64,000 bases of DNA from an uncultured delta proteobacterium (GTDB lineage: Bacteria; Desulfobacterota; Binatia; Binatales; Binataceae). A model generated the notes under the pieces. The model had not been told where the DNA came from, searched no databases, and worked only from the letters and a program-made list of their open reading frames with translations. The DNA lies in contig CAWHWI010000001.1 of assembly GCA_963833025.1 (NCBI GenBank), positions 596,855 to 660,854 on the forward strand. The letters are read 5' to 3'. The translations under genes were made by a program, and so were the position numbers. This document shows positions 35,611 through 62,551 of this stretch, one piece after another. Each line of letters begins with the position of its first letter. The stretch's first letter is position 1.

Positions 35611-35916
35611 ATGAACTGCTGGCATTGCGCCCGAAAGATCGAAGTCGTCACCGGCGAACGAGTCGGTTTTCGCGACGAGTGCCCCGGATGCGGCCGCGCG
35701 CTCCACTCATGTCGCAACTGCGGCTTTTACGATCCGTCCTACAACAACAGTTGCCGCGAGCCGATGGCGGAGCGGGTGGTCGATAAGGAACGATTCAATT
35801 TCTGCGAATATTTTATCCCGGGCGACGCGGCTGCCAGGCCGCCAGCAAAAACAAAAGCAAAAACAACAACTGGCGCCCAAAAAGAGCTGGAGGCTCTCTT
35901 CAAGAAAAAATCATGA
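35611..35916 (+). CDS. Small zinc-ribbon protein (four CxxC pairs)
   Basis: MNCWHC..CPGC..CRNC..C pattern; Lys-rich C-terminus. Confidence 0.55.
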   Translation: MNCWHCARKIEVVTGERVGFRDECPGCGRALHSCRNCGFYDPSYNNSCREPMAERVVDKERFNFCEYFIPGDAAARPPAKTKAKTTTGAQKELEALFKKKS

Positions 35917-36341
35917 CCTCGCGCCGACTCCAGTTTCGTGACCGATGCGTCGAGCTTCTATTCATCGCGGCGTTCGCTTCGACAGTCGCCACCGGATGCC
36001 ATCCGGCCAACAGCGCGCGCGGGGTCGTCGATCGCTTCATCGACCAATATTATGTAGCGATCGATCTGAAGGCGGCCGAGCCATTCTGCACCGGCCTCGC
36101 ACTCGACAAACTGCATAAGGAAATGCAGCTGATCGGCAATCAGAAAATCGACGCGAACACCCGCAAGCCCGTCGTGCATTACAAGCTCACTGCCGAGCGC
36201 GACGGCACCGACCATATCGAATTCCTGTTTCGCGCTACCATCGACGTGCCCGAAGGCGGCACCTTCAACCGCAACTGGCTGATAACCGCGCGCAAGGACG
36301 CCGACACGTGGAAAGTCTCGAACTTCGATGACTACGAATAG
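35913..36341 (+). CDS. Lipoprotein, hypothetical
   Basis: Signal peptide with lipobox ATGC; 4-nt overlap with the upstream gene. Confidence 0.55.
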   Translation: MTSRRLQFRDRCVELLFIAAFASTVATGCHPANSARGVVDRFIDQYYVAIDLKAAEPFCTGLALDKLHKEMQLIGNQKIDANTRKPVVHYKLTAERDGTDHIEFLFRATIDVPEGGTFNRNWLITARKDADTWKVSNFDDYE

Positions 36342-37764
36342 CGTCGCCGCGATCATCCTCGCCGCCGGCAAGGGAACCCGGATGCGCTCGAAGCGCGCCA
36401 AGGTCCTGCACGAGCTAGGCGGCGAACCGATGATCGCGCGCGCAGTTCGCGCCGTCGCGGCACTCGAACCAGATCCAATCGTGATCGTCGTCGGCCACCA
36501 GGCTCGCGAGGTCGAAGCCGCCGTAACTTCATCGAAGGCGCGATTCGCTTTCCAGGAGCCGCAGCGCGGCACCGGCGACGCCGCGCGATGCGCCCTCGCG
36601 CAGCTTCCCGCAAACTTCACCGGCGACGTGCTGATCACTTATGGCGACATGCCCGCGATCACGTCGGCGACGCTGCGCGCGTTCCTCGACGCACATCGAA
36701 AGCGCGGCGCCAAACTCTCGTTCATCAGTATTGTTCTCGACGACCCCGCGGCATACGGCCGCGTCATTCGCGATACGTCCGGCAACGTCGATAAAATCGT
36801 CGAGTTCCGCGACGCGTCGCCCACCGAACGCGCCGTCAAGGAAATCAACACCGGCTTTTACGTCGTCGATAGCGCCCTGCTGCGCTCCGCGCTCGCGGAA
36901 CTGAAACCGTCCAACGCGCAGGATGAGTACTATCTGACCGATATCGTCGCGATTGCGCGTGCGCGCAGTGAAAACGAAAAAGTTGAAGCGTGGGTTGCTA
37001 CCGACCCGGCGGAATTCGCCGGTATCAACTCGCGCGAGGAGCTGGCAAATATGGAAGCCGAAGTTCGTGCCACCGTTAACCGAAAGCTGATGGCGTCCGG
37101 CGTGACGCTCGTCGATCCCGCATCCGCCTACATCTCGGAGCAGGCCGAAATCGCGCCCGATTGCGTAATCGGTCCCAACGTCCAGATTTTCGGCGCCTGC
37201 AAGCTCGGCGAGGGCGTGCGAATCGACGGCACCGCGTGGCTCAGCAACGTGACGATTGGCCCGCGATGCCATCTGAAGCTCGGCGTGCGCGCCGAAGATT
37301 GCTCAATCGGCGAGGAATCCGAAATCGGCCCGTTCGCCAACTTGCGCGCCGGCACCGAACTCGCCGGCCACAATCGCATCGGCAATTTCGTCGAGACCAA
37401 AAAGGCGCGCATCGGACGCGGCACCAAGGCCAGCCACCTGAGCTACCTCGGCGACACCACCATCGGCGCCGACACCAACATCGGATGCGGCGTCATCACC
37501 GTGAACTACGACGGCTACGACAAGCATCACACGGAAATAGGCGACCGCTGCATGGTCGGATGCGACACGCAACTCGTCGCGCCAATCAAGGTCGGCAGCG
37601 ACGTGTACGTCGCGTCAGGCACGACGATTATTCGCGAGGTGCCCGACGGTGCGCTAGTGATGTCGCATCATCCGCAACGCGAAAAGGCCGGCTGGATGGC
37701 AACCTGGCGCAAACGCCACAACGACACCCCCGACGGCACCCTGCGGCGCAAAAAGGATCACTAA
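36328..37764 (+). CDS. glmU: Bifunctional UDP-N-acetylglucosamine pyrophosphorylase / glucosamine-1-phosphate N-acetyltransferase
   Basis: AIILAAGKGTRM N-terminus; left-handed beta-helix hexapeptide repeats at the C-terminus. Confidence 0.9.
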   Translation: MTTNSVAAIILAAGKGTRMRSKRAKVLHELGGEPMIARAVRAVAALEPDPIVIVVGHQAREVEAAVTSSKARFAFQEPQRGTGDAARCALAQLPANFTGDVLITYGDMPAITSATLRAFLDAHRKRGAKLSFISIVLDDPAAYGRVIRDTSGNVDKIVEFRDASPTERAVKEINTGFYVVDSALLRSALAELKPSNAQDEYYLTDIVAIARARSENEKVEAWVATDPAEFAGINSREELANMEAEVRATVNRKLMASGVTLVDPASAYISEQAEIAPDCVIGPNVQIFGACKLGEGVRIDGTAWLSNVTIGPRCHLKLGVRAEDCSIGEESEIGPFANLRAGTELAGHNRIGNFVETKKARIGRGTKASHLSYLGDTTIGADTNIGCGVITVNYDGYDKHHTEIGDRCMVGCDTQLVAPIKVGSDVYVASGTTIIREVPDGALVMSHHPQREKAGWMATWRKRHNDTPDGTLRRKKDH

Positions 37765-37864
37765 GTCTGTTGTCATCCTGACGAACCGTCGCTTGTACTC
37801 GCTCAACCGAGCGAGAATAATCATCACAACGAGGTGACGGTCGAGGCGATAGAAAACAAAGTGC

Positions 37865-38045
37865 GAGAGTAGCGCCAGGACTCATGGCCGCATCTGGCCA
37901 TGAGTTGACGAGGTGGAAGCAGCATCGAAAGATTCGGCGGATGGCTTCCCGGCTCCACGGTCGATAGAGGCGAGAGTGAAACCGCGCGGGTGACCGCGCG
38001 ACAAAACGCGCCTCGAGTGGCAGAGCATCCGGCTCTGATGTGATT
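37865..38045 (+). ncRNA. glmS ribozyme: glmS ribozyme (GlcN6P-responsive self-cleaving riboswitch) in the glmS 5' UTR
   Basis: AGCGCCAGGACU..UUGACGAGG..AUCGAA..UUCGGCGGAUGGCUUCCCGGCU matches the conserved core. The P1 hairpin is ACUCAUGGCC/GGCCAUGAGU. The P2 pairing GGAAGC/GCUUCC covaries relative to Bacillus GGAGG/CCUCC. Confidence 0.8.
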
Positions 38046-38148
38046 TCCTAAACTCTCCTCCAAAAGTCATTTCGCTATCGCTCCGTCCGTGTGGGTTCGG
38101 ACAACTCCGTAACCTTCCCTGCAAATCAGGGGAAAGGAGCGAACGCTC

Positions 38149-39978
38149 ATGTGCGGAATAATTGGATACGTCGGGCCGAGCGAGGCCTACCCGATCCTGC
38201 TCGAAGGGCTCAGCCGCCTCGAATATCGCGGCTACGATTCGGCGGGCATCGCAACTCTATCCGACAACAAGCTCGAAATTCGGCGCGCCAAAGGCAAGCT
38301 CGAGAACTTGCGCCACCTGTTGGCCGACTCCCCCCTTAAAGGCCGCATCGGAATCGGGCACACGCGATGGGCGACGCACGGCCGCCCGTCCGAGGAAAAC
38401 GCGCATCCGCACCAGGCCGGCCCGGTCGCGGTCATCCACAACGGCATCGTCGAGAACTTCATCGATCTGCGCACCGAGCTGCTCGCGCGCGGCCACAAAC
38501 TCCGCTCCGAGACCGACACCGAGCTGATCTCGCACCTTATCGAGGAGAAGCTCAAAGGCGGCCGCGGTCTCGCCGAGGCCGTGCGCGAGGCCGTCCTGCG
38601 GCTCCGCGGTTCGTTCTCAATAGTCGTGCTGTCGGAGACCGAGCCAGACAAATTGGTCGCCGCCAAGACCGCGACGCCGCTGGTGCTGGGGCTTGGCGAC
38701 GGCGAGAATTTCGTCGCCTCGGATATTCCCGCGATTCTCGAGCACACGCGCCGCGCGATTGTCCTCGAAGACGGCGAGCTGGCCGAGGTCACCGCGGCCA
38801 CGGCGCGCATCATGAAGTTCGACGGCACCGCAGTCACTCGCGCGCCGCGTCAAGTTGAATGGGATGCCGTCGCGGCCACCAAGGGCGGCTTCCGCCACTA
38901 CCTGCGCAAGGAAATCAACGATCAGCCGCAGGCGTGGATCGACACGATGGCCGGACGCGCGGACGCCGGCTCACCTATCGTGCGTTTCGAAGGCGAGCTG
39001 CTGCCGGCGGGCGGTCCCGCGTCGATCGGGCGAATCGTGATGCTCGGTGCGGGCGCCTCATGGATCACTGCGCAGGTCGCCAAGTTCATGATCGAGGAGC
39101 TCGCCGGGATTCCGGTCGAGGTCGATTACTCATCCGAGTTCCGCTATCGACGCCCGCCAATCGACGGCCGCACGATGATCATAGCCGTGTCGCAGTCGGG
39201 CGAGACCGCCGACACGATCGCTGCGATGGAAGAGGGCCGCGCGCGCGGTGCGCATCTGCTGGCGATCACCAACACCGTGGACTCGTCGATCGCGCGCAAG
39301 GCCGACGCGCAGTTGTACACGCGATGCGGTCCCGAGACCAGCGTGACAACCACCAAGTGCTTTCTCACGCAGCTCGAGGCTTACTATCTGTTCGCGATTC
39401 ACCTGGCGGCGCGGATGGGCCGTCTTTCAGGCTCCGATTCCGGGAAATTGTTGCAGCCGGCGTTCGCGATTCCCGGACAGATCAAAACTATCTTCGAGAG
39501 CGAGCCGAACATTCAGCAGATCGCGCGCAAGTACGCGCAGGCGCGCGACTTCCTGTTCCTCGGCCGCGGCATCAACTACCCAATCGCGCTCGAGGGGGCG
39601 CTCAAGCTTAAGGAAATTTCCTACATCCACGCCGAAGGTTACTCCGCAGGCGAGATGAAGCATGGGCCGATCGCGCTAATCGACGACAAGATGCCGGTGG
39701 TCGTGATAATTCCCAACGACGAGCTGTTCGACAAGTCGATGTCGAATCTGAAGGAAGTCGAATCGCGCAACGGCCGCATCATAGCAGTCACCAATCACGC
39801 AACCGCCGAGTTGAAAAGCGTAGCCGCGGAAATTATCGAGGTGCCGGAGACTAACCACATGTTAACGCCGGTACTGATGACAGTCCCACTACAACTGCTC
39901 GCCTACCACATAGCAGTGGAACGAGGCACCGATGTCGACCAACCGCGCAACCTCGCAAAGTCGGTAACTGTCGAGTAG
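38149..39978 (+). CDS. glmS: Glutamine--fructose-6-phosphate aminotransferase
   Basis: MCGIIGYVG N-terminal nucleophile; two SIS domains; ends ..NLAKSVTVE. Confidence 0.95.
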   Translation: MCGIIGYVGPSEAYPILLEGLSRLEYRGYDSAGIATLSDNKLEIRRAKGKLENLRHLLADSPLKGRIGIGHTRWATHGRPSEENAHPHQAGPVAVIHNGIVENFIDLRTELLARGHKLRSETDTELISHLIEEKLKGGRGLAEAVREAVLRLRGSFSIVVLSETEPDKLVAAKTATPLVLGLGDGENFVASDIPAILEHTRRAIVLEDGELAEVTAATARIMKFDGTAVTRAPRQVEWDAVAATKGGFRHYLRKEINDQPQAWIDTMAGRADAGSPIVRFEGELLPAGGPASIGRIVMLGAGASWITAQVAKFMIEELAGIPVEVDYSSEFRYRRPPIDGRTMIIAVSQSGETADTIAAMEEGRARGAHLLAITNTVDSSIARKADAQLYTRCGPETSVTTTKCFLTQLEAYYLFAIHLAARMGRLSGSDSGKLLQPAFAIPGQIKTIFESEPNIQQIARKYAQARDFLFLGRGINYPIALEGALKLKEISYIHAEGYSAGEMKHGPIALIDDKMPVVVIIPNDELFDKSMSNLKEVESRNGRIIAVTNHATAELKSVAAEIIEVPETNHMLTPVLMTVPLQLLAYHIAVERGTDVDQPRNLAKSVTVE

Positions 39979-41512: not shown

Positions 41513-44500
41513 CTATTCACCGGACCCGCTTAGCGGGATCGTCTGGTGCGCACTCGGTTGCGAGCCAGAGGTGATCGCATTTGCCGCGTTGTCAAAGATA
41601 GTCACCGCCGAGGGAGGTTGCGGGCCCGGCGCAGCCGGAATAAATTCCACCGTCAGGTTGCACGTTTTCTGCGGGAACAATTGCGGGGGGCAGTTCGTGG
41701 CCGATCCGGCAAACCCGAATTCCTGCGGCGTCATCACCGGGACCGAAAACGGGCTCGCAAAGGTGATCGGCGGCCCTTCCTCGGCCGAATTGCTCAGCGT
41801 GAATGTCACCGATTTCTCCTGTCCTACTTTTACACTGCCGAAATTACCCGACGGCGGATTGATAACCAGGTTTCCGGGAACTGGGGTCGCGGTCGGAGTG
41901 GGGGTCGGTGTCTTTCTGCCCTTCCGGACTTTGCCTGTCCCCTTGAGTGTAATCGTCCGCGACGGATCTGTTCCATTGTTCGCGATGACGAGCGTCGCGG
42001 TGCGAACGCCCGTATCGACGGGGGCGAAGGTGATCGCGACCTCGCACTTGGCGCCCGCGGCGAGCTGACCCACGCAGTTCTGCGAGGCGGAGAACTCGCT
42101 GTTGCTGGACTGGATCGAGCTGATCACGATGGGTGCGTCTTCTGTCATTTTATCGCTGAGCGTGAGCTCGGCAGGCTTGCTCACCGAACCAAGGTTAACG
42201 TCGCCGAAGTTAATCGCGTCCGGCTTGGTCCCGAGCGTCGCTTGTACCGGCGTTGGCGTGGCCGTAGGCGTGACGGTCGGAGTGGCTGTCGCGGTCGATG
42301 TCGCCGTCGCAGTAGCCGTGGCAGTCGCGGTCGCTGTGGGCGTAGCCGTGCCGGTTGCGGTGGCAGTTGGCGTCACAGTCACCGTGGCTGTCGCCGTAGC
42401 GGTCGCTGTTGGAGTTGCGGTTTGAGTCGCAGTGGCTGTCGGAGTTGAGGTTAATGTCGCCGTGGCGGTCGCAGTTGCCGTGGCCGTTGCAGTCGGCGTC
42501 GATGTGGCAGTGGCAGTCGGAGTTGCGGTTCGAGTCGCGGTGGCCGTGGCAGTTGCCGATGCCGTCGGCGATGCGGCGATGCTGATATTTGCAACGTAAG
42601 CGTTCTCACTTCCGCCGAGAGTCGGCTGCTCGCCGCTCGATGCGCCATTGAAGTTTGGAGAATCGGTGTACCCGGTCACATATGCGGAGCTGCCACCCGG
42701 ATCCGCTGAAATACCTGTACCAAAATCCCACTTGCTTCCACCCAGGTAGGTGGAGAAAGCCGCAGTCGAGCCAGCCGGATTGAGTTGAGTAACGAAGCTG
42801 TCGACTTCCTCGAAATCCCCTGCATATATGGTTCCGGTTACACTTGGGGTGACGGCAAGCGCATTGAAGTTGCCGGGGTGAAAACCATTGGGATAAATCG
42901 GGCTGAAGCTCGTGCCGGCATCGGCGCTCTTCAGAATTGTGTATTGATTATTGCTGCCGAAATATATTGTTCCGGGAGTGGTAGTCGGATCGACTGCAAC
43001 GCCCCCGCCATCCGTTCCGTATTCGAAAGTATTGTAGCTCGGACAGCCGAAGCAGTTGGCGAAGCCCCCGCTGCTTCCTACCAATCCTTGAAACTGAGTG
43101 CTCCCGTATATGACCGTTGGGTAGCTGGTCGGGTCCGCCGCCATGGACAGAATTGGAGAATATCCTATGGTCCGCAGGAAAGTGTTGTTGTTGGGATCGT
43201 AAAGTTCCGAAAACGATTCCGGAGGATTAGGCTCCCCTAATTGACCGCCAGCCCAAAGGACCTTTCCATTATTGAGCAGGATCGCAGGTGCAGACACGCC
43301 AAAGCCCGCAATATGAAAGGCGTTCATCAGGGTCGTAGGCGAAAATGTGGCGGTGGCTGGGTTATACAATTCAGCAGCGGTGAGCGCCGATGTATCACTG
43401 GCAACCCCTCCTGCCACCAGCACGAGCCCGTTGGTGAGGAGAACAGCCCCATGATCCGCCCTCGGCGTCGTCATGTTTCCGACCGAAGAAAATGTGCCCG
43501 ACGATGGGTCGTACAGCTCGGCGCCCGCCAAGTCGCCTATCCCCTCGTCTTGCCCGTCGGACGTGTTGGCGGTGCCGCCGGTGATCAACACCTTGCCATC
43601 TGGAAGCAACGTGGCCGTGTGAGCATGGCGGGCGTTAGCCATGCTGCCCGTGGCTGAAAAAGAGTTGGTCGAGGGATCGTATATCTCCGCAGTGGCCGTA
43701 GCCGCATTCGAGGACGTGATTCCGCCGGCGATCAACACCTTGCCGTTCGCCAGAAGAGTGGCAGTATGCTTGTAACGCAGCATCGTCATGTTGCCGGCCG
43801 TCAGAGTGAACGTTCCAGTCGTGGGATTGTAAAGCTCAGCGGTTCCGCCGGCGTCGAAGAAGTCGCCGCCCGCGACCAACACATCTCCGTCGAGATCGGT
43901 GCCGGTCCCCTGGAGAAGGGTGGCCGTGTCCAGGTAGCGTGGGGTCGTCATATTGCCTGTCGCAGTGAATGTGCCCCCGCTGAAAAGCTCAGCGCTCTTA
44001 AGAACGCTATCGGAAGAGTCGAGTCCTCCGGTCACCAGTACAGAGCCGTTCTCAAGCGTCGTCCCCGTGTGAATGGCCCGCGCCGTGATCATGCCGCCAG
44101 TGGTTGTCCAGCTACCGGCCGAGGGGCTGAAGATTTCCGCGCTCGCGGTGGGACTGGCGTAATCGGCGGCGGTATAACCGCCACTGGCTAGCACTGTGCC
44201 ATCGGAAAGAAGATCCAATGGAAAGATCTGGCGCGCGACGTTCATGCTGCCGGTCGCCTGAAAGTTGCTGGTTCGGAACAGTCCGTTCGCGGTACCCGCG
44301 TAGAGATTAGCGGGCGATTGCGGATCGACCAGCAGTGACAATACTTCAGTGTTTGGCAAAGTCGGAACAACCTGGAAACTGGCGCCCGCATCGGTGCTCT
44401 TCACGACCCCGCTCAATTGAGTGCCCGCATAGATCGTCGTGGGCGACGTGCTTGGGTCCTGGGCAAGGGACCTGACAATCTGGCCTGTCAGCGCAGTCGC

Positions 44501-46930
44501 ATTGAAAGTAGTGCCGCTGTCAGTACTTTTTAACAAGCCATTCGGAGTAGCGGCGTACACCGTGGTATGGTTATTCAAATCAACCAACGCGCCTGCTGGT
44601 TGGCCGGTAAGCCCGGTTGGGCTGAACGAAACGCCGCCGTCCGTACTCTTCAGAATTCCGCTTCGATTGGTTCCAACGTAGATCGTGCTGGTGTTAACCG
44701 GATCGATCGAGATGTCCAGCACAGCGCTCGCCATCGTGCTCTGCGCCGTCGGATTGAAGGTGGCGCCGTCGGTCGCTTTGAAGAGCTGGAAGAAAGGAGA
44801 CGATGGGCCTTGCAACGGACTCGCGAGCGGAAAATTCGTAAATGTCGTGACTCCGGTAACGTGGGCGCTTCCCCTCGAGTCCACCGATATCGCTTCCGCG
44901 GCATCAGCTCCGGTGTCACCAAGATAGGTGGAGTAAACAATTGAGCCACTGCTGTTGAGCTTCGTCACGAAAGCATCGTCGAAGCCCCCAAAAGTAGTCT
45001 GGAAGGCACCTGCAGTCGTCGGGAAATCCGTCGACCAGGTGAAGCCGGCGACGTAACTGTTGCAGTTCGATTGGCAACCCGGTTCCAGGGCGATTCCGTC
45101 GCCCTGGTCATAGCCTATACCGCCGAGATACCGTGCAAAGATCAGGTTGGTACCGGAACTGTTGAACTCGGCCACAAAGCAATCAGCGCCACCGTGATAC
45201 GCACCACCAACGGTGGTCGGTAAAGTCGCCACGTTGGCAATCCCCGTTATGAAGGCGTCGCCGGAGCCGTCCACCGCTATCGAGGCGCCATACAACCCAA
45301 TTCCATCATTCGCGGGTCCCGGACCGCCGGAATAGTAAGTCGAGTAGAGAAGCTGAGAACCGTCCGCGCTCACACTGGTAACGAAAGCATCAAACGCATT
45401 GGGCGCGGAGGTCTGGTACGCGCTCTCTGTCACGGGGAAATCACTCGTAGTTGTTTGACCGGTTATGAACGCGGTGCAGTTCGAGCTGCATCCGGCCGGA
45501 ATGGCGACGGAGGTCGCTACCGAGCCACCCACTCCTAGCGTGGGGTCCGTCGACGTGGAACCGCCAAGAAGTATCCCAAACACCAGAGACGAACCGTCGG
45601 AACTGAGTTTCGCTACGAAGGCGTCGTAGAGCCCGGCAAAACTCTGTCCCGCAGTTGTCGGAAAGTCTGAGGAATAAGTCTCTCCCGCGACATAGACCGC
45701 GCCAGTCGAATCGACCGTTATTCCGAGGCCCTCGTCGAATGACGAGCCGCCAAGGTAGGTGGAATAAACCAGTGCTCCGGCAGAATTAAACTTTGTGACA
45801 AAGGCATCGCAGCCGCCCTGCGCGGTGCCCAGATAGACCCCTGCGGTCACCGGGAAATTGGCCGAGCATGCGAATCCCGTCACGTAGGCATTGCTGCTCG
45901 CATCCGAAGCGACTGCAAGAGCCCCGTCCGGCCCTGAACCGCCCAGGTAGGTCGAGAAAGTCAGAATCGGATCGATGACGATCGGCCTGCTCCGATCGTA
46001 CTCCCCCACTTGCATTCCCGCCTCATGCGCGCCATGCAGCCGCCATCCGCCTCCTATCGTCCGCCGCGCGCCGCCGCGCTCCTGGTAAATCGCCGGCGCA
46101 TGCTCGACTAGCTTGCCCTTGCCGACGCTCACGATCAGATCGCCCTGCTTATCGAGGGCCAATTTGCCCGCACCGCGGAAGCTCAGCCGAATCGCATTCG
46201 GGTCGGCGCCGGGCGCAAGGCGGAAATCATACTCGAGCTGGCCCTGCGCGCTGCCGTGGTAGATCAGATCGATTCCCGGATAGACATTCTTGAGCTCGAC
46301 TTTGGCGTAGTTGGGAACATCCGTCCGCCATTTCTTCGGGTCCTTGCCGATGAAATAGTTGCTGCGGGCCGCCATCCGATCGACGCCGATAATTTGTGGC
46401 GTGCGCGCGGCGCCCTTGAGCCCGATTCGCACTACTGCCGGCTTGCCAACCTTCCCCAATGCCTCTTTCGCACCGCCAGCGGGCAACAACGAACGCGGCT
46501 GAAGCTTCTCGCGCAACCCGTCGCCTGCGGTCTTTCCGCGAATGGAAAATGTGGATGACGGCCCTCCTATCGCGCCGTGCAAACGGACCGCATCGCGCGA
46601 CGCGGCATCGCGCATCGACAACACCGCCTCGCGCGCAGTCAGAAACAGCGTGTATCCCTGTCCACGCGTTAGAAACTTCACCGCCGGATCGCTCTGGCCC
46701 AGGTTCGGCTCGAAGCTTAGCGGCATCTTCGATAAGGAAATTCGCGGCGCATGATTGGCCGCGACCATCGCCCGCGGCGACGGCAGCTCCGCATGATCGC
46801 TCGCGCGCGCGGACTGCGACGACGCGATCGTTCGCGGCGCGCGCATCGCCACCATCGCGGCGATCGCCGGTACAGCGATGCAGGCGACCACAATTACACC
46901 GATGTGGACGCTTCCGCCCCGTTTTTTCAT
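41513..46930 (-). CDS. Giant secreted protein (1805 aa): signal peptide, N-terminal DUF7948-like domain, SBBP beta-propeller repeats, Kelch/galactose-oxidase-like repeats, Thr/Ala/Pro-rich linker, two C-terminal choice-of-anchor-D (ASH/HYDIN-like) domains
   Basis: Repeated YSTYLGGS..DxGxGIAVDxxGxAYVTGxTxSxDFP units; ..GKVLxxGG.. Kelch blades; ATATATPTATAT linker; GDVNLGS..C..L..C.V.F.P domains. Confidence 0.85.
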   Translation of the reverse strand: MKKRGGSVHIGVIVVACIAVPAIAAMVAMRAPRTIASSQSARASDHAELPSPRAMVAANHAPRISLSKMPLSFEPNLGQSDPAVKFLTRGQGYTLFLTAREAVLSMRDAASRDAVRLHGAIGGPSSTFSIRGKTAGDGLREKLQPRSLLPAGGAKEALGKVGKPAVVRIGLKGAARTPQIIGVDRMAARSNYFIGKDPKKWRTDVPNYAKVELKNVYPGIDLIYHGSAQGQLEYDFRLAPGADPNAIRLSFRGAGKLALDKQGDLIVSVGKGKLVEHAPAIYQERGGARRTIGGGWRLHGAHEAGMQVGEYDRSRPIVIDPILTFSTYLGGSGPDGALAVASDASSNAYVTGFACSANFPVTAGVYLGTAQGGCDAFVTKFNSAGALVYSTYLGGSSFDEGLGITVDSTGAVYVAGETYSSDFPTTAGQSFAGLYDAFVAKLSSDGSSLVFGILLGGSTSTDPTLGVGGSVATSVAIPAGCSSNCTAFITGQTTTSDFPVTESAYQTSAPNAFDAFVTSVSADGSQLLYSTYYSGGPGPANDGIGLYGASIAVDGSGDAFITGIANVATLPTTVGGAYHGGADCFVAEFNSSGTNLIFARYLGGIGYDQGDGIALEPGCQSNCNSYVAGFTWSTDFPTTAGAFQTTFGGFDDAFVTKLNSSGSIVYSTYLGDTGADAAEAISVDSRGSAHVTGVTTFTNFPLASPLQGPSSPFFQLFKATDGATFNPTAQSTMASAVLDISIDPVNTSTIYVGTNRSGILKSTDGGVSFSPTGLTGQPAGALVDLNNHTTVYAATPNGLLKSTDSGTTFNATALTGQIVRSLAQDPSTSPTTIYAGTQLSGVVKSTDAGASFQVVPTLPNTEVLSLLVDPQSPANLYAGTANGLFRTSNFQATGSMNVARQIFPLDLLSDGTVLASGGYTAADYASPTASAEIFSPSAGSWTTTGGMITARAIHTGTTLENGSVLVTGGLDSSDSVLKSAELFSGGTFTATGNMTTPRYLDTATLLQGTGTDLDGDVLVAGGDFFDAGGTAELYNPTTGTFTLTAGNMTMLRYKHTATLLANGKVLIAGGITSSNAATATAEIYDPSTNSFSATGSMANARHAHTATLLPDGKVLITGGTANTSDGQDEGIGDLAGAELYDPSSGTFSSVGNMTTPRADHGAVLLTNGLVLVAGGVASDTSALTAAELYNPATATFSPTTLMNAFHIAGFGVSAPAILLNNGKVLWAGGQLGEPNPPESFSELYDPNNNTFLRTIGYSPILSMAADPTSYPTVIYGSTQFQGLVGSSGGFANCFGCPSYNTFEYGTDGGGVAVDPTTTPGTIYFGSNNQYTILKSADAGTSFSPIYPNGFHPGNFNALAVTPSVTGTIYAGDFEEVDSFVTQLNPAGSTAAFSTYLGGSKWDFGTGISADPGGSSAYVTGYTDSPNFNGASSGEQPTLGGSENAYVANISIAASPTASATATATATRTATPTATATSTPTATATATATATATLTSTPTATATQTATPTATATATATVTVTPTATATGTATPTATATATATATATSTATATPTVTPTATPTPVQATLGTKPDAINFGDVNLGSVSKPAELTLSDKMTEDAPIVISSIQSSNSEFSASQNCVGQLAAGAKCEVAITFAPVDTGVRTATLVIANNGTDPSRTITLKGTGKVRKGRKTPTPTPTATPVPGNLVINPPSGNFGSVKVGQEKSVTFTLSNSAEEGPPITFASPFSVPVMTPQEFGFAGSATNCPPQLFPQKTCNLTVEFIPAAPGPQPPSAVTIFDNAANAITSGSQPSAHQTIPLSGSGE
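42235..42575. repeat. Imperfect 6-nt-periodic tandem repeats (GCN GTN) encoding the Thr/Ala/Pro linker of the giant protein
   Basis: Direct reading of the sequence; opposite-strand ORFs giving AVAVAV peptides are artefacts of this repeat. Confidence 0.7.
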
Positions 46931-62465: not shown

Positions 62466-62551
62466 TGCCGGGGGGCGGGACTCGAACCCGCACGGAGGTC
62501 GCCCTCCTGAGAATTTTAAGTCCTCTGCATATACCATTTCACCACCCCGGC
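62466..62551 (-). tRNA. tRNA-Leu(UAA): tRNA-Leu (anticodon UAA), class II with long variable arm
   Basis: Reverse complement reads GCCGGGGUGGUGAAAUGGUA..GAGGA-CUUAAAA-UUCUC..GCGGGUUCGAGUCCCGC.., close to E. coli tRNA-Leu(UAA); CCA not encoded. Confidence 0.8.

Follow-up and report, generated by a model that had tools for sequence, protein, structure and literature searches.

A probable glmS ribozyme with additional flanking helices in the glmU-glmS spacer of Candidatus Binatus

What does the long spacer between glmU and glmS do in Candidatus Binatus, a bacterium outside the Firmicutes? In a 64-kb stretch of its DNA (64,000 nt, called the window here), this spacer measures 384 nt from the glmU stop at 37764 to the glmS ATG at 38149. 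A sequence-only reading had placed a glmS ribozyme there and had given the same spacer length. To our knowledge, the glmS ribozyme is the only natural ribozyme known to use a metabolite as catalytic cofactor. It is an antibiotic target, nearly all work on it concerns Firmicutes, and the class is known in several phyla beyond them. We conclude that the 5′ untranslated region (UTR) of the Binatus glmS very probably contains a functional glmS ribozyme-riboswitch, on the grounds of its family membership, structure conservation, covariation and gene context.

The entire window was scanned with cmscan against the 4227 families of Rfam 15. The spacer matches the glmS ribozyme family RF00234 with 86.5 bits against a gathering score of 37 (E = 1.6e-18), well above threshold as had been predicted, and the match spans model positions 1–167 of 167 with no truncation. 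The open reading frames (ORFs) on both sides encode GlmU and GlmS. The fold is more stable than 200 of 200 dinucleotide shuffles (z = −3.2). The ribozyme ends 125 nt before the glmS ATG and lies after a promoter, so placed in the glmS 5′ UTR by a predicted transcription start.

A general risk of metagenome assemblies is that such a match is a chance resemblance or comes from a misassigned contig, here a Firmicute or Chloroflexi fragment binned into Binatus. The E value speaks against chance. Independent Binatus and Binataceae contigs from several studies, up to 942 kb long, show the same arrangement, both flanking genes are 88–94% identical to those on Binatus and Binataceae contigs, and the window is uniform housekeeping chromosome. 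The E value, the independent contigs and the flanking-gene identity refute this explanation, to which we give a negligible probability.

Does the spacer RNA hold the whole ribozyme anatomy? We mapped the helices to the window from the architecture published in mutational and structural papers (PMC7125110, PMC11602151), and Table 1 lists them with the other features. All eight published helices, including the three pseudoknots, can form in the window and 46 of 46 pairs are standard. The predicted scissile bond is A37871↓G37872, in the A↓GCGCC context (37871↓37872–37876) that the sequence-only reading had pointed out.

Downstream of the A↓G step, CGCC pairs with CGGCG in P2.2 (C37873-G37939, G37874-C37938, C37875-G37937, C37876-G37936 and G37878-C37935) with a bulged nucleotide at position 6, as in the published architecture (PMC7125110). 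In P2.1, at the active site and cofactor pocket, the CGA of the GACGAGG strand pairs with the UCG of AUCGA (C37909-G37927, G37910-C37926 and A37911-U37925). Both pseudoknots are thus foldable with the conserved nucleotides, as anticipated. The conserved core strings UUGACGAGG (37905–37913), UUCGGCGGAUG (37933–37943) and CCCGGCU (37948–37954) are all where the sequence-only reading had them. It had also located AUCGAA rightly (37924–37929) but had called it a bulge, whereas its UCG is the 3′ strand of the pseudoknot helix P2.1. In Rfam's nested consensus this stretch appears as a small hairpin, because covariance models cannot hold pseudoknots.

Relative to the Rfam consensus, helices P1, P2, P3, P4 and P4.1 are altered in sequence but still paired. 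P2, read correctly before as GGAAGC/GCUUCC, departs from the consensus gGaGg/cCuCc on both strands with its pairing intact. P1 has a different sequence, as had been noted, and is an 11-bp rather than a 10-bp hairpin.

The peripheral domain is complete with P3/P3.1, P4/P4.1, a GNRA tetraloop and an A-rich internal loop. The P4.1 loop is GUGA or GCGA in every sequence aligned, and both the AAA/ACAA adenines and the P1 G-C receptor pair C37881-G37904 are invariant. Mutational work marks the receptor, the GNRA loop and the internal-loop adenines as critical tertiary contacts (PMC11602151). The GNRA loop would dock on the P1 G-C pair and the A-rich internal loop on P2.1.

Since every defining feature of RF00234 that can be judged from sequence is present, the spacer RNA is by this standard a full-length member of the family, beyond mere similarity. 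Glucosamine-6-phosphate (GlcN6P)-dependent self-cleavage is what such membership predicts.

Table 1. Features of the ribozyme, its flanks and the adjoining genes, with positions in the window
Feature	Position	Strand	Remarks
glmU	36328–37764	+	478 aa; TIGR01173, 526 bits vs cutoff 367
Sigma-70-like promoter	−35 TTGTAC 37793–98; −10 AATAAT 37816–21	+	17-nt spacer; conserved in relatives
glmS ribozyme, Rfam RF00234	37860–38023	+	86.5 bits, full model
P0, 5′ strand GAGAGU	37865–37870	+	directly 5′ of A−1
P0, 3′ strand ACUCUC	38052–38057	+	within conserved block AAACUCUCC
Catalytic core double pseudoknot	37873–37939	+	mapped pairs, all standard
P2.2	37873–76 and 37878 with 37935–39	+	A37877 bulged
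P1	37879–89 with 37896–906	+	11 bp
P2.1	37909–11 with 37925–27	+	CGA of GACGAGG with UCG of AUCGA
P2	GGAAGC 37915–20 with GCUUCC 37944–49	+	100% paired
Peripheral domain	37950–38020	+	all standard pairs
P3	37950–53 with 37960–63	+	
P3.1 pseudoknot	CCAC 37955–58 with GUGG 38017–20	+	
P4	37967–72 with 38009–14	+	
P4.1	37983–89 with 37994–38000	+	capped by GNRA loop GUGA 37990–93
Internal-loop adenines	AAA 37979–81, ACAAAA 38001–06	+	
P5 hairpin CAGAGC-AUCCG-GCUCUG	38021–38037	+	directly 3′ of P3.1
Outer leader-linker helix (tentative)	GGCGAUAG 37845–37852 with CUAUCGCU 38075–38082	+	RNAalifold
Shine-Dalgarno AAGGAG	38134–38139	+	read from sequence
glmS start codon ATG	38149–38151	+	read from sequence
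glmS, regulated gene	38149–39978	+	609 aa; TIGR01135, 786 bits vs cutoff 418

Is this structure maintained? The 12 ribozyme loci fetched for comparison came via a search with the GlmS protein, which leaves the RNA alignment unbiased. Across its 13 sequences, 98.1% of the pair cells are paired against 32–37% with slid partners, seven pairs are compensatory with both sides changed, and no shuffle out of 500 comes up to these values. A metagenome scan with the core pattern, from which the flanks were deliberately excluded, brought 78 additional loci.

Among 67 distinct Binataceae-type sequences, the full structure is 97.9% paired against 33–40% with slid partners. On every measure the 500 shuffles include no match. 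Compensatory changes occur in 20 pairs, in 123 cells altogether. Among the canonical helices they fall in P1 (6 pairs), P3 (1), P4 (5) and P4.1 (3), so P1 covaries while P2 is kept 100% paired off the consensus. The P2.1 pairs are invariant in 13 of 13 and 67 of 67 sequences. Covariation had been put forward as an argument for a functional RNA, and it is borne out by the double-changed pairs that stay paired in both sets (7 with n = 13, 20 with n = 67). Because the helix changes are solely compensatory or wobble in the 67 sequences while GlmS diverges by up to about 25%, the comparison indicates that the ribozyme structure is under ongoing selection.

From which promoter would the ribozyme be transcribed? 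A sigma-70-like promoter lies within the spacer, and a consensus promoter scan missed it because its −35 element matches the consensus at only 3 of 6 positions. A promoter match of at least 8 of 12 is found in 49 of 73 distinct leaders. In these 49, the −35 is TTGAAC 37 times, the spacer is 17 nt in 46 and the −10 is AATAAT in 44, and the −10 ends 46–51 nt ahead of the cleavage site. Transcription probably starts near 37828 in the window, so that some 44 nt of leader would precede the cleavage site.

The module of promoter, ribozyme and glmS persists at seven loci that lack glmU or have it at a distance of over 700 nt (L002, L003, L004, L008, L009, L010 and L023), and where glmU and glmS part, the ribozyme remains with glmS. 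As the upstream promoter is conserved and the module persists in this way, the ribozyme appears to lie in a 5′ UTR dedicated to glmS, as it does in Bacillus. The scan found no intrinsic terminator on the + strand between glmU and the ribozyme, so read-through from glmU could also occur.

Such read-through bears on another role, in which glmU and glmS are cotranscribed and the ribozyme is mainly an intra-operon processing site, its GlcN6P-dependent cleavage uncoupling glmS from glmU. In E. coli, RNase E processes the glmUS transcript in an analogous way. Besides the missing terminator, glmU is the immediate upstream neighbour on the same strand, both in the window and in most relatives, and the two genes are about 10–150 nt apart and operon-like in the relatives that have no ribozyme. 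This role is set against by the conserved promoter between glmU and the ribozyme, and by the same seven loci where the module persists with glmU distant or absent. We consider it unlikely as the main function, although it is compatible with a glmS-dedicated riboswitch rather than exclusive of it.

The leader itself has several features. Its motif GAGGUGAYGGUC...GCGAUAGAAAA (37830–37856 in the window) is kept in most Binataceae-type loci, well outside the Binatus genus, and resembles the ribozyme's own ACGGUCGAUAGAGGCG (37957–37972). No covariation of this motif with the P4 3′ strand was seen. An anti-ribozyme fold between the leader's GGUCGAGGCG and the P4 3′ strand was rejected, the leader variants of L004, L007 and L009 being unmatched in P4. 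Nine leaders from several Binataceae lineages (L083, L086, L090, L095, L098, L117, L118, L136 and L149) have an extra G+C-rich, hairpin-like insert such as GGGGCACGGTCGGCCC, which makes them longer than the window's. It is placed between the −10 and the conserved GAGGTRAYGGTC motif, about 45–75 nt upstream of the cleavage site.

How would the ribozyme act? By analogy with the family, one can propose which ligand it binds, how it cleaves and in which direction it regulates. Transcription would most likely begin at the dedicated sigma-70-type promoter in the glmU-glmS spacer, and the nascent RNA would fold into the canonical double-pseudoknot core of P2.2, P1, P2.1 and P2, stabilised by the P3/P3.1/P4/P4.1 domain. 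As GlcN6P, the product of GlmS, accumulates, it would bind the preformed pocket as catalytic cofactor and drive cleavage between A37871 and G37872. The cleaved glmS message would have a 5′-hydroxyl (5′-OH) end and then be inactivated, giving negative feedback on GlmS synthesis. Outside the canonical fold, a helix P0 would anchor the final nucleotides of the 5′ cleavage fragment to the linker on the downstream side, and a hairpin P5 would stack after P3.1. In B. subtilis, the cleaved 5′-OH glmS mRNA is degraded via RNase J1 (PMC3997798, PMC10810187).

Several points weigh against a functional ribozyme. The core scan pattern fixed portions of P2.2, P1, P2.1 and P2 by construction, and P2.1, P2.2 and P3.1 never vary and give no covariation information. 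Neither RNase J nor another 5′-OH-dependent decay route is encoded in the 64-kb window. Over 450 glmS ribozymes are known, most of them in Firmicutes, and of the five in Gram-negative bacteria none is verified as active (PMC10099748). The putative ones of two Gram-negative Fusobacterium species are inactive in vitro (PMC10099748), so family membership by sequence is no guarantee of activity.

The Fusobacterium candidates invite the view that the Binatus element is an inactive relic, still scoring as a glmS ribozyme without cleavage or regulation. It agrees with this view that many close relatives have lost the element altogether, and that some Chloroflexota copies have AGAGAA for AUCGAA, which should break P2.1. 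However, the Binataceae-type core is invariant, helix substitutions are compensatory or wobble alone, and the window copy has no disabling substitution at positions marked as essential by mutational studies. A relic is therefore very improbable, and we keep to the functional glmS ribozyme.

What lies outside the Rfam model? P0 is a 6-bp helix that encloses the whole ribozyme domain, and RNAalifold predicts it independently. Its 3′ strand ACUCUC comes 31 nt past the ribozyme in the window and 28–36 nt after P3.1 in nearly all Binataceae-type loci. Across the 67 distinct sequences, P0 is paired in 99.3% of cells. The sole changes in its 5′ strand are two independent compensatory ones, AAGAGU/ACUCUU (L152) and GAAAGU/ACUUUC (L154), and three sequences (L092, L137 and L148) have G·U intermediates.

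P5 is likewise outside the Rfam consensus structure and forms in about 66 of 71 distinct sequences. It has at least six stem variants, such as CGGAAC/GUUCCG, CGGGAC/GUCCCG and CAGGGC/GCCCUG. In the 67-sequence set, 97.3% of its cells are paired and three pairs are compensatory, each in 6–9 sequences. A scan flagged P5 as an intrinsic terminator, which is unlikely with a 6-bp stem and an interrupted and offset U-tract.

P0 and P5 are the sole new anatomy relative to the family model. They are lineage-specific additions and most likely help the domain fold independently of its flanks. No description of such flanking helices was found in the literature covered, which did not extend to key glmS survey papers.

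A further, outer helix between leader and linker is tentative. For the window's cluster (representative L001), the leader-linker interaction is predicted at −21.1 kcal/mol against −10.7 ± 3.7 kcal/mol for shuffled leaders, and 0 of 100 shuffled leaders are as good as the real one. The helix is seen in 4 of 14 clusters, the window's and three others. A test of cognate against non-cognate best helices gave no significant difference (p = 0.32) and is confounded by shared leader motifs. These models tentatively suggest a lineage-specific helix. It was rejected as a general feature, the shuffle support being confined to some clusters.

Could these flanking pairings couple cleavage to translation? 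The linker strand freed from P0 and the outer helix might occlude the Shine-Dalgarno sequence, with decay or instead of it. Removing the leader indeed lowers the predicted Shine-Dalgarno accessibility in most clusters, from a mean of 0.39 to 0.14 (Wilcoxon p = 0.0002). Against the shuffled-leader control, however, the effect is not significant (p = 0.10), the window itself stays at a low 0.26 with or without the leader, and the severed leader could remain annealed. We thus rejected a cleavage-coupled translational switch and regard it as improbable. In the Binatus group, the Shine-Dalgarno region GGAGCGAAC is predicted to pair with a conserved GUUCGG..ACUCYG upstream, both lying within 38095–38144 in the window, and AAAGGAGCGAA in the Shine-Dalgarno and glmS start region is kept across the group.

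How widespread is the ribozyme and which organism carries it? GlmU is 88–91% identical to GlmU at the loci of Binatus metagenome-assembled genomes (MAGs). A direct look-up gave no exact match to the GlmS protein of the window. In a scan of one genome per GTDB species, GlmS is 92–94% identical to Candidatus Binatus and Binataceae MAG proteins. Further Binataceae follow at 68–79% and then, below a gap, Geobacterales, Myxococcota, Acidobacteriota and Elusimicrobiota at 47–55%. By these sequence identities the host is Candidatus Binatus of the candidate phylum Binatota, where the NCBI taxonomy places Binatus, and not a Firmicute. Many of the matching MAGs bear the record label 'delta proteobacterium'.

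RF00234 is found upstream of glmS in 12 of the fetched loci (L001–L010, L017 and L023) with 78–92 bits. They make up 12 of 29 Binataceae glmS loci and comprise the Binatus genus clade, its sister L010, and L017. The other 17 Binataceae loci, including two with a truncated upstream side, lack the ribozyme, and so does every one of the 51 fetched non-Binataceae glmS loci. For the absences, a profile covering both ribozyme groups and run with nhmmer at E ≤ 10 found the same 12 loci alone, and Rfam was run on 20 loci (L010–L029) and 10 outgroup loci.

The glmU-glmS gap is mostly 10–150 nt without the ribozyme, while the spacer is at least 369 nt with it. Three ribozyme-less Binataceae have long spacers (L019, 534 nt; L029, 403 nt; L027, 223 nt) with no Rfam or nhmmer match. 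These could hold lost-ribozyme remnants or a different leader.

In a bootstrapped GlmS tree, Binatus with L010 has 80% support, and a clade that holds every ribozyme-bearing lineage and no other is recovered in 4.5% of the replicates. The latter value makes at least one loss or one transfer likely, and a single-gene tree cannot tell which. In the long-read MAG contigs L009:3001-4831 and L023:3001-4831, the glmS frame is broken, with stops after 184 and 396 aa. tblastn spans residues 1–609 there at 92–94% identity, and the breaks are probably assembly frameshifts, not pseudogenes.

A wider reading joins these strands. The Binataceae ribozyme would be a structurally extended, laterally acquired subclass, possibly from high-GC soil bacteria such as Chloroflexota. 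P0, with the outer helix in some lineages, would tether the 5′ fragment, and cleavage would be read out by a change in the linker with RNase J-type decay or instead of it. We hold this as a whole to be an outside chance. If true, it would mean RNase-J-independent use of the ribozyme in a Gram-negative-type phylum.

The rest of the window is ordinary, uniform housekeeping chromosome. On the plus strand, an unknown 142-aa ORF is followed by glmU, the ribozyme, glmS and lepB. The minus strand has argB, hslU, hslV and an xerC-like recombinase gene. Further out are arginine and lysine biosynthesis genes, F420-type oxidoreductases and a sigma-54-dependent regulator.

Three other places in the window call for remarks. 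The 142-aa ORF (35913–36341, +) overlaps the glmU start by 14 nt, has a gene-like third-position G+C (GC3) of 0.76 and no match in Pfam or NCBIfam. At 41513–46930 (−), an 1805-aa protein combines DUF7948 and an SBBP beta-propeller with Kelch repeats and Ig-like (ASH/HYDIN) domains. It is large and probably either secreted or at the cell surface, and the GC3 of its gene, 0.68, is below its neighbours' 0.76–0.84. Rfam called a tRNA-Sec at 62466–62551 (−) with 47.8 bits, just over the gathering score of 47, and the call was rejected. ARAGORN finds tRNA-Leu with anticodon TAA, and the anticodon loop in the Rfam alignment is CUUAAAA, so this is a tRNA-Leu with a long variable arm and not a selenocysteine tRNA.

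The glmS ribozyme is a known RNA class, and the findings overturn no current understanding. No literature linking Binatota with riboswitches was found in a coverage that did not include Rfam hit lists and MAG annotations, and no report of its occurrence in Binatota was met. The notability claimed for a non-Firmicute host holds as to the host but is tempered, since the family is already known outside Firmicutes and a routine Rfam scan detects this copy.

The results add an uncultured soil phylum to the documented hosts. The Binatota copy, being under clear selection, offers G+C-rich and well-sampled natural variants for studying the mechanism outside Gram-positives, and also for asking how 5′-OH mRNA is cleared there. 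The patchy presence in close relatives is a natural experiment on the gain or loss of a riboswitch before an essential gene. The parts that deserve specialist attention are the accessory helices and the patchy distribution, which may involve transfer.

How does the Binatus ribozyme compare with known systems? The GlmY/GlmZ/RapZ system of Enterobacteriaceae follows the same logic of GlcN6P feedback on glmS at the mRNA level. There too glmU precedes glmS, and processing takes place between them (PMC2377431). It acts through trans-acting small RNAs, RNase E and an adaptor protein, whereas the window would use a cis-acting, self-cleaving RNA. This parallel is one of analogy, not of homology.

A closer counterpart came from the metagenomes, where eight loci have the identical core pattern (L104, L120, L125, L129, L130, L146, L151 and L153). 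They are Chloroflexota-type. Their proteins are true GlmS, 31–37% identical to the window's, and the nearest named relatives are Chloroflexia or Chloroflexota MAG proteins at 59–67% identity. All eight ribozymes pass the Rfam threshold with 71–84 bits. They are letter-identical to the window's in P2.2, the P1 base, the GACGAGG strand of P2.1 and the P2 GGAAGC stem, these being the stretches fixed by the search pattern (TAGCGCCAGGACUC ... GAGUUGACGAGGUGGA). Overall they are 67–72% identical, with quite different P3 and P4 sequences, and have no P5, no P0, no consistent leader-linker pairing and no glmU adjacent to the ribozyme and glmS. That two unrelated soil phyla share this core variant is compatible with lateral transfer and is no proof of it.

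Three of these copies (L129:5871-6029, L104:6233-6391 on the minus strand and L153:7438-7596; 75–79 bits) carry AGAGAA in place of the AUCGAA found in all the others, a change expected to disrupt two of the three P2.1 pairs in the cofactor pocket. The copies could be inactive or a core variant. Their glmS starts lie 470–560 nt downstream of the cleavage site. In L130, some 620 nt downstream of the glmS that follows the ribozyme, there is a bacterial 16S rRNA gene (L130:3051-3865), of which the contig end leaves the 5′ 815 nt. This gene could place this Chloroflexota-like lineage exactly.

The closest likeness is to the Firmicute RF00234 ribozymes, such as those of Bacillus subtilis, B. anthracis and Thermoanaerobacter tengcongensis. 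They and the window's have in common the cleavage context A↓GCGCC, the core GACGAGG, UCG of AUCGA and CGGCGG, and the same P1, P2, P2.1, P2.2, P3, P3.1, P4 and P4.1. Both have a GNRA loop on P4.1 and A-rich internal-loop strands, and both have the glmS 5′ UTR position after a promoter of its own. The window differs in its high-GC host, in its G+C-rich helices of other sequence and in its upstream flank, GAGAGUA where that of Firmicutes is A-rich. It also has glmU as the upstream gene, and P5 and P0 as additions beyond the family model.

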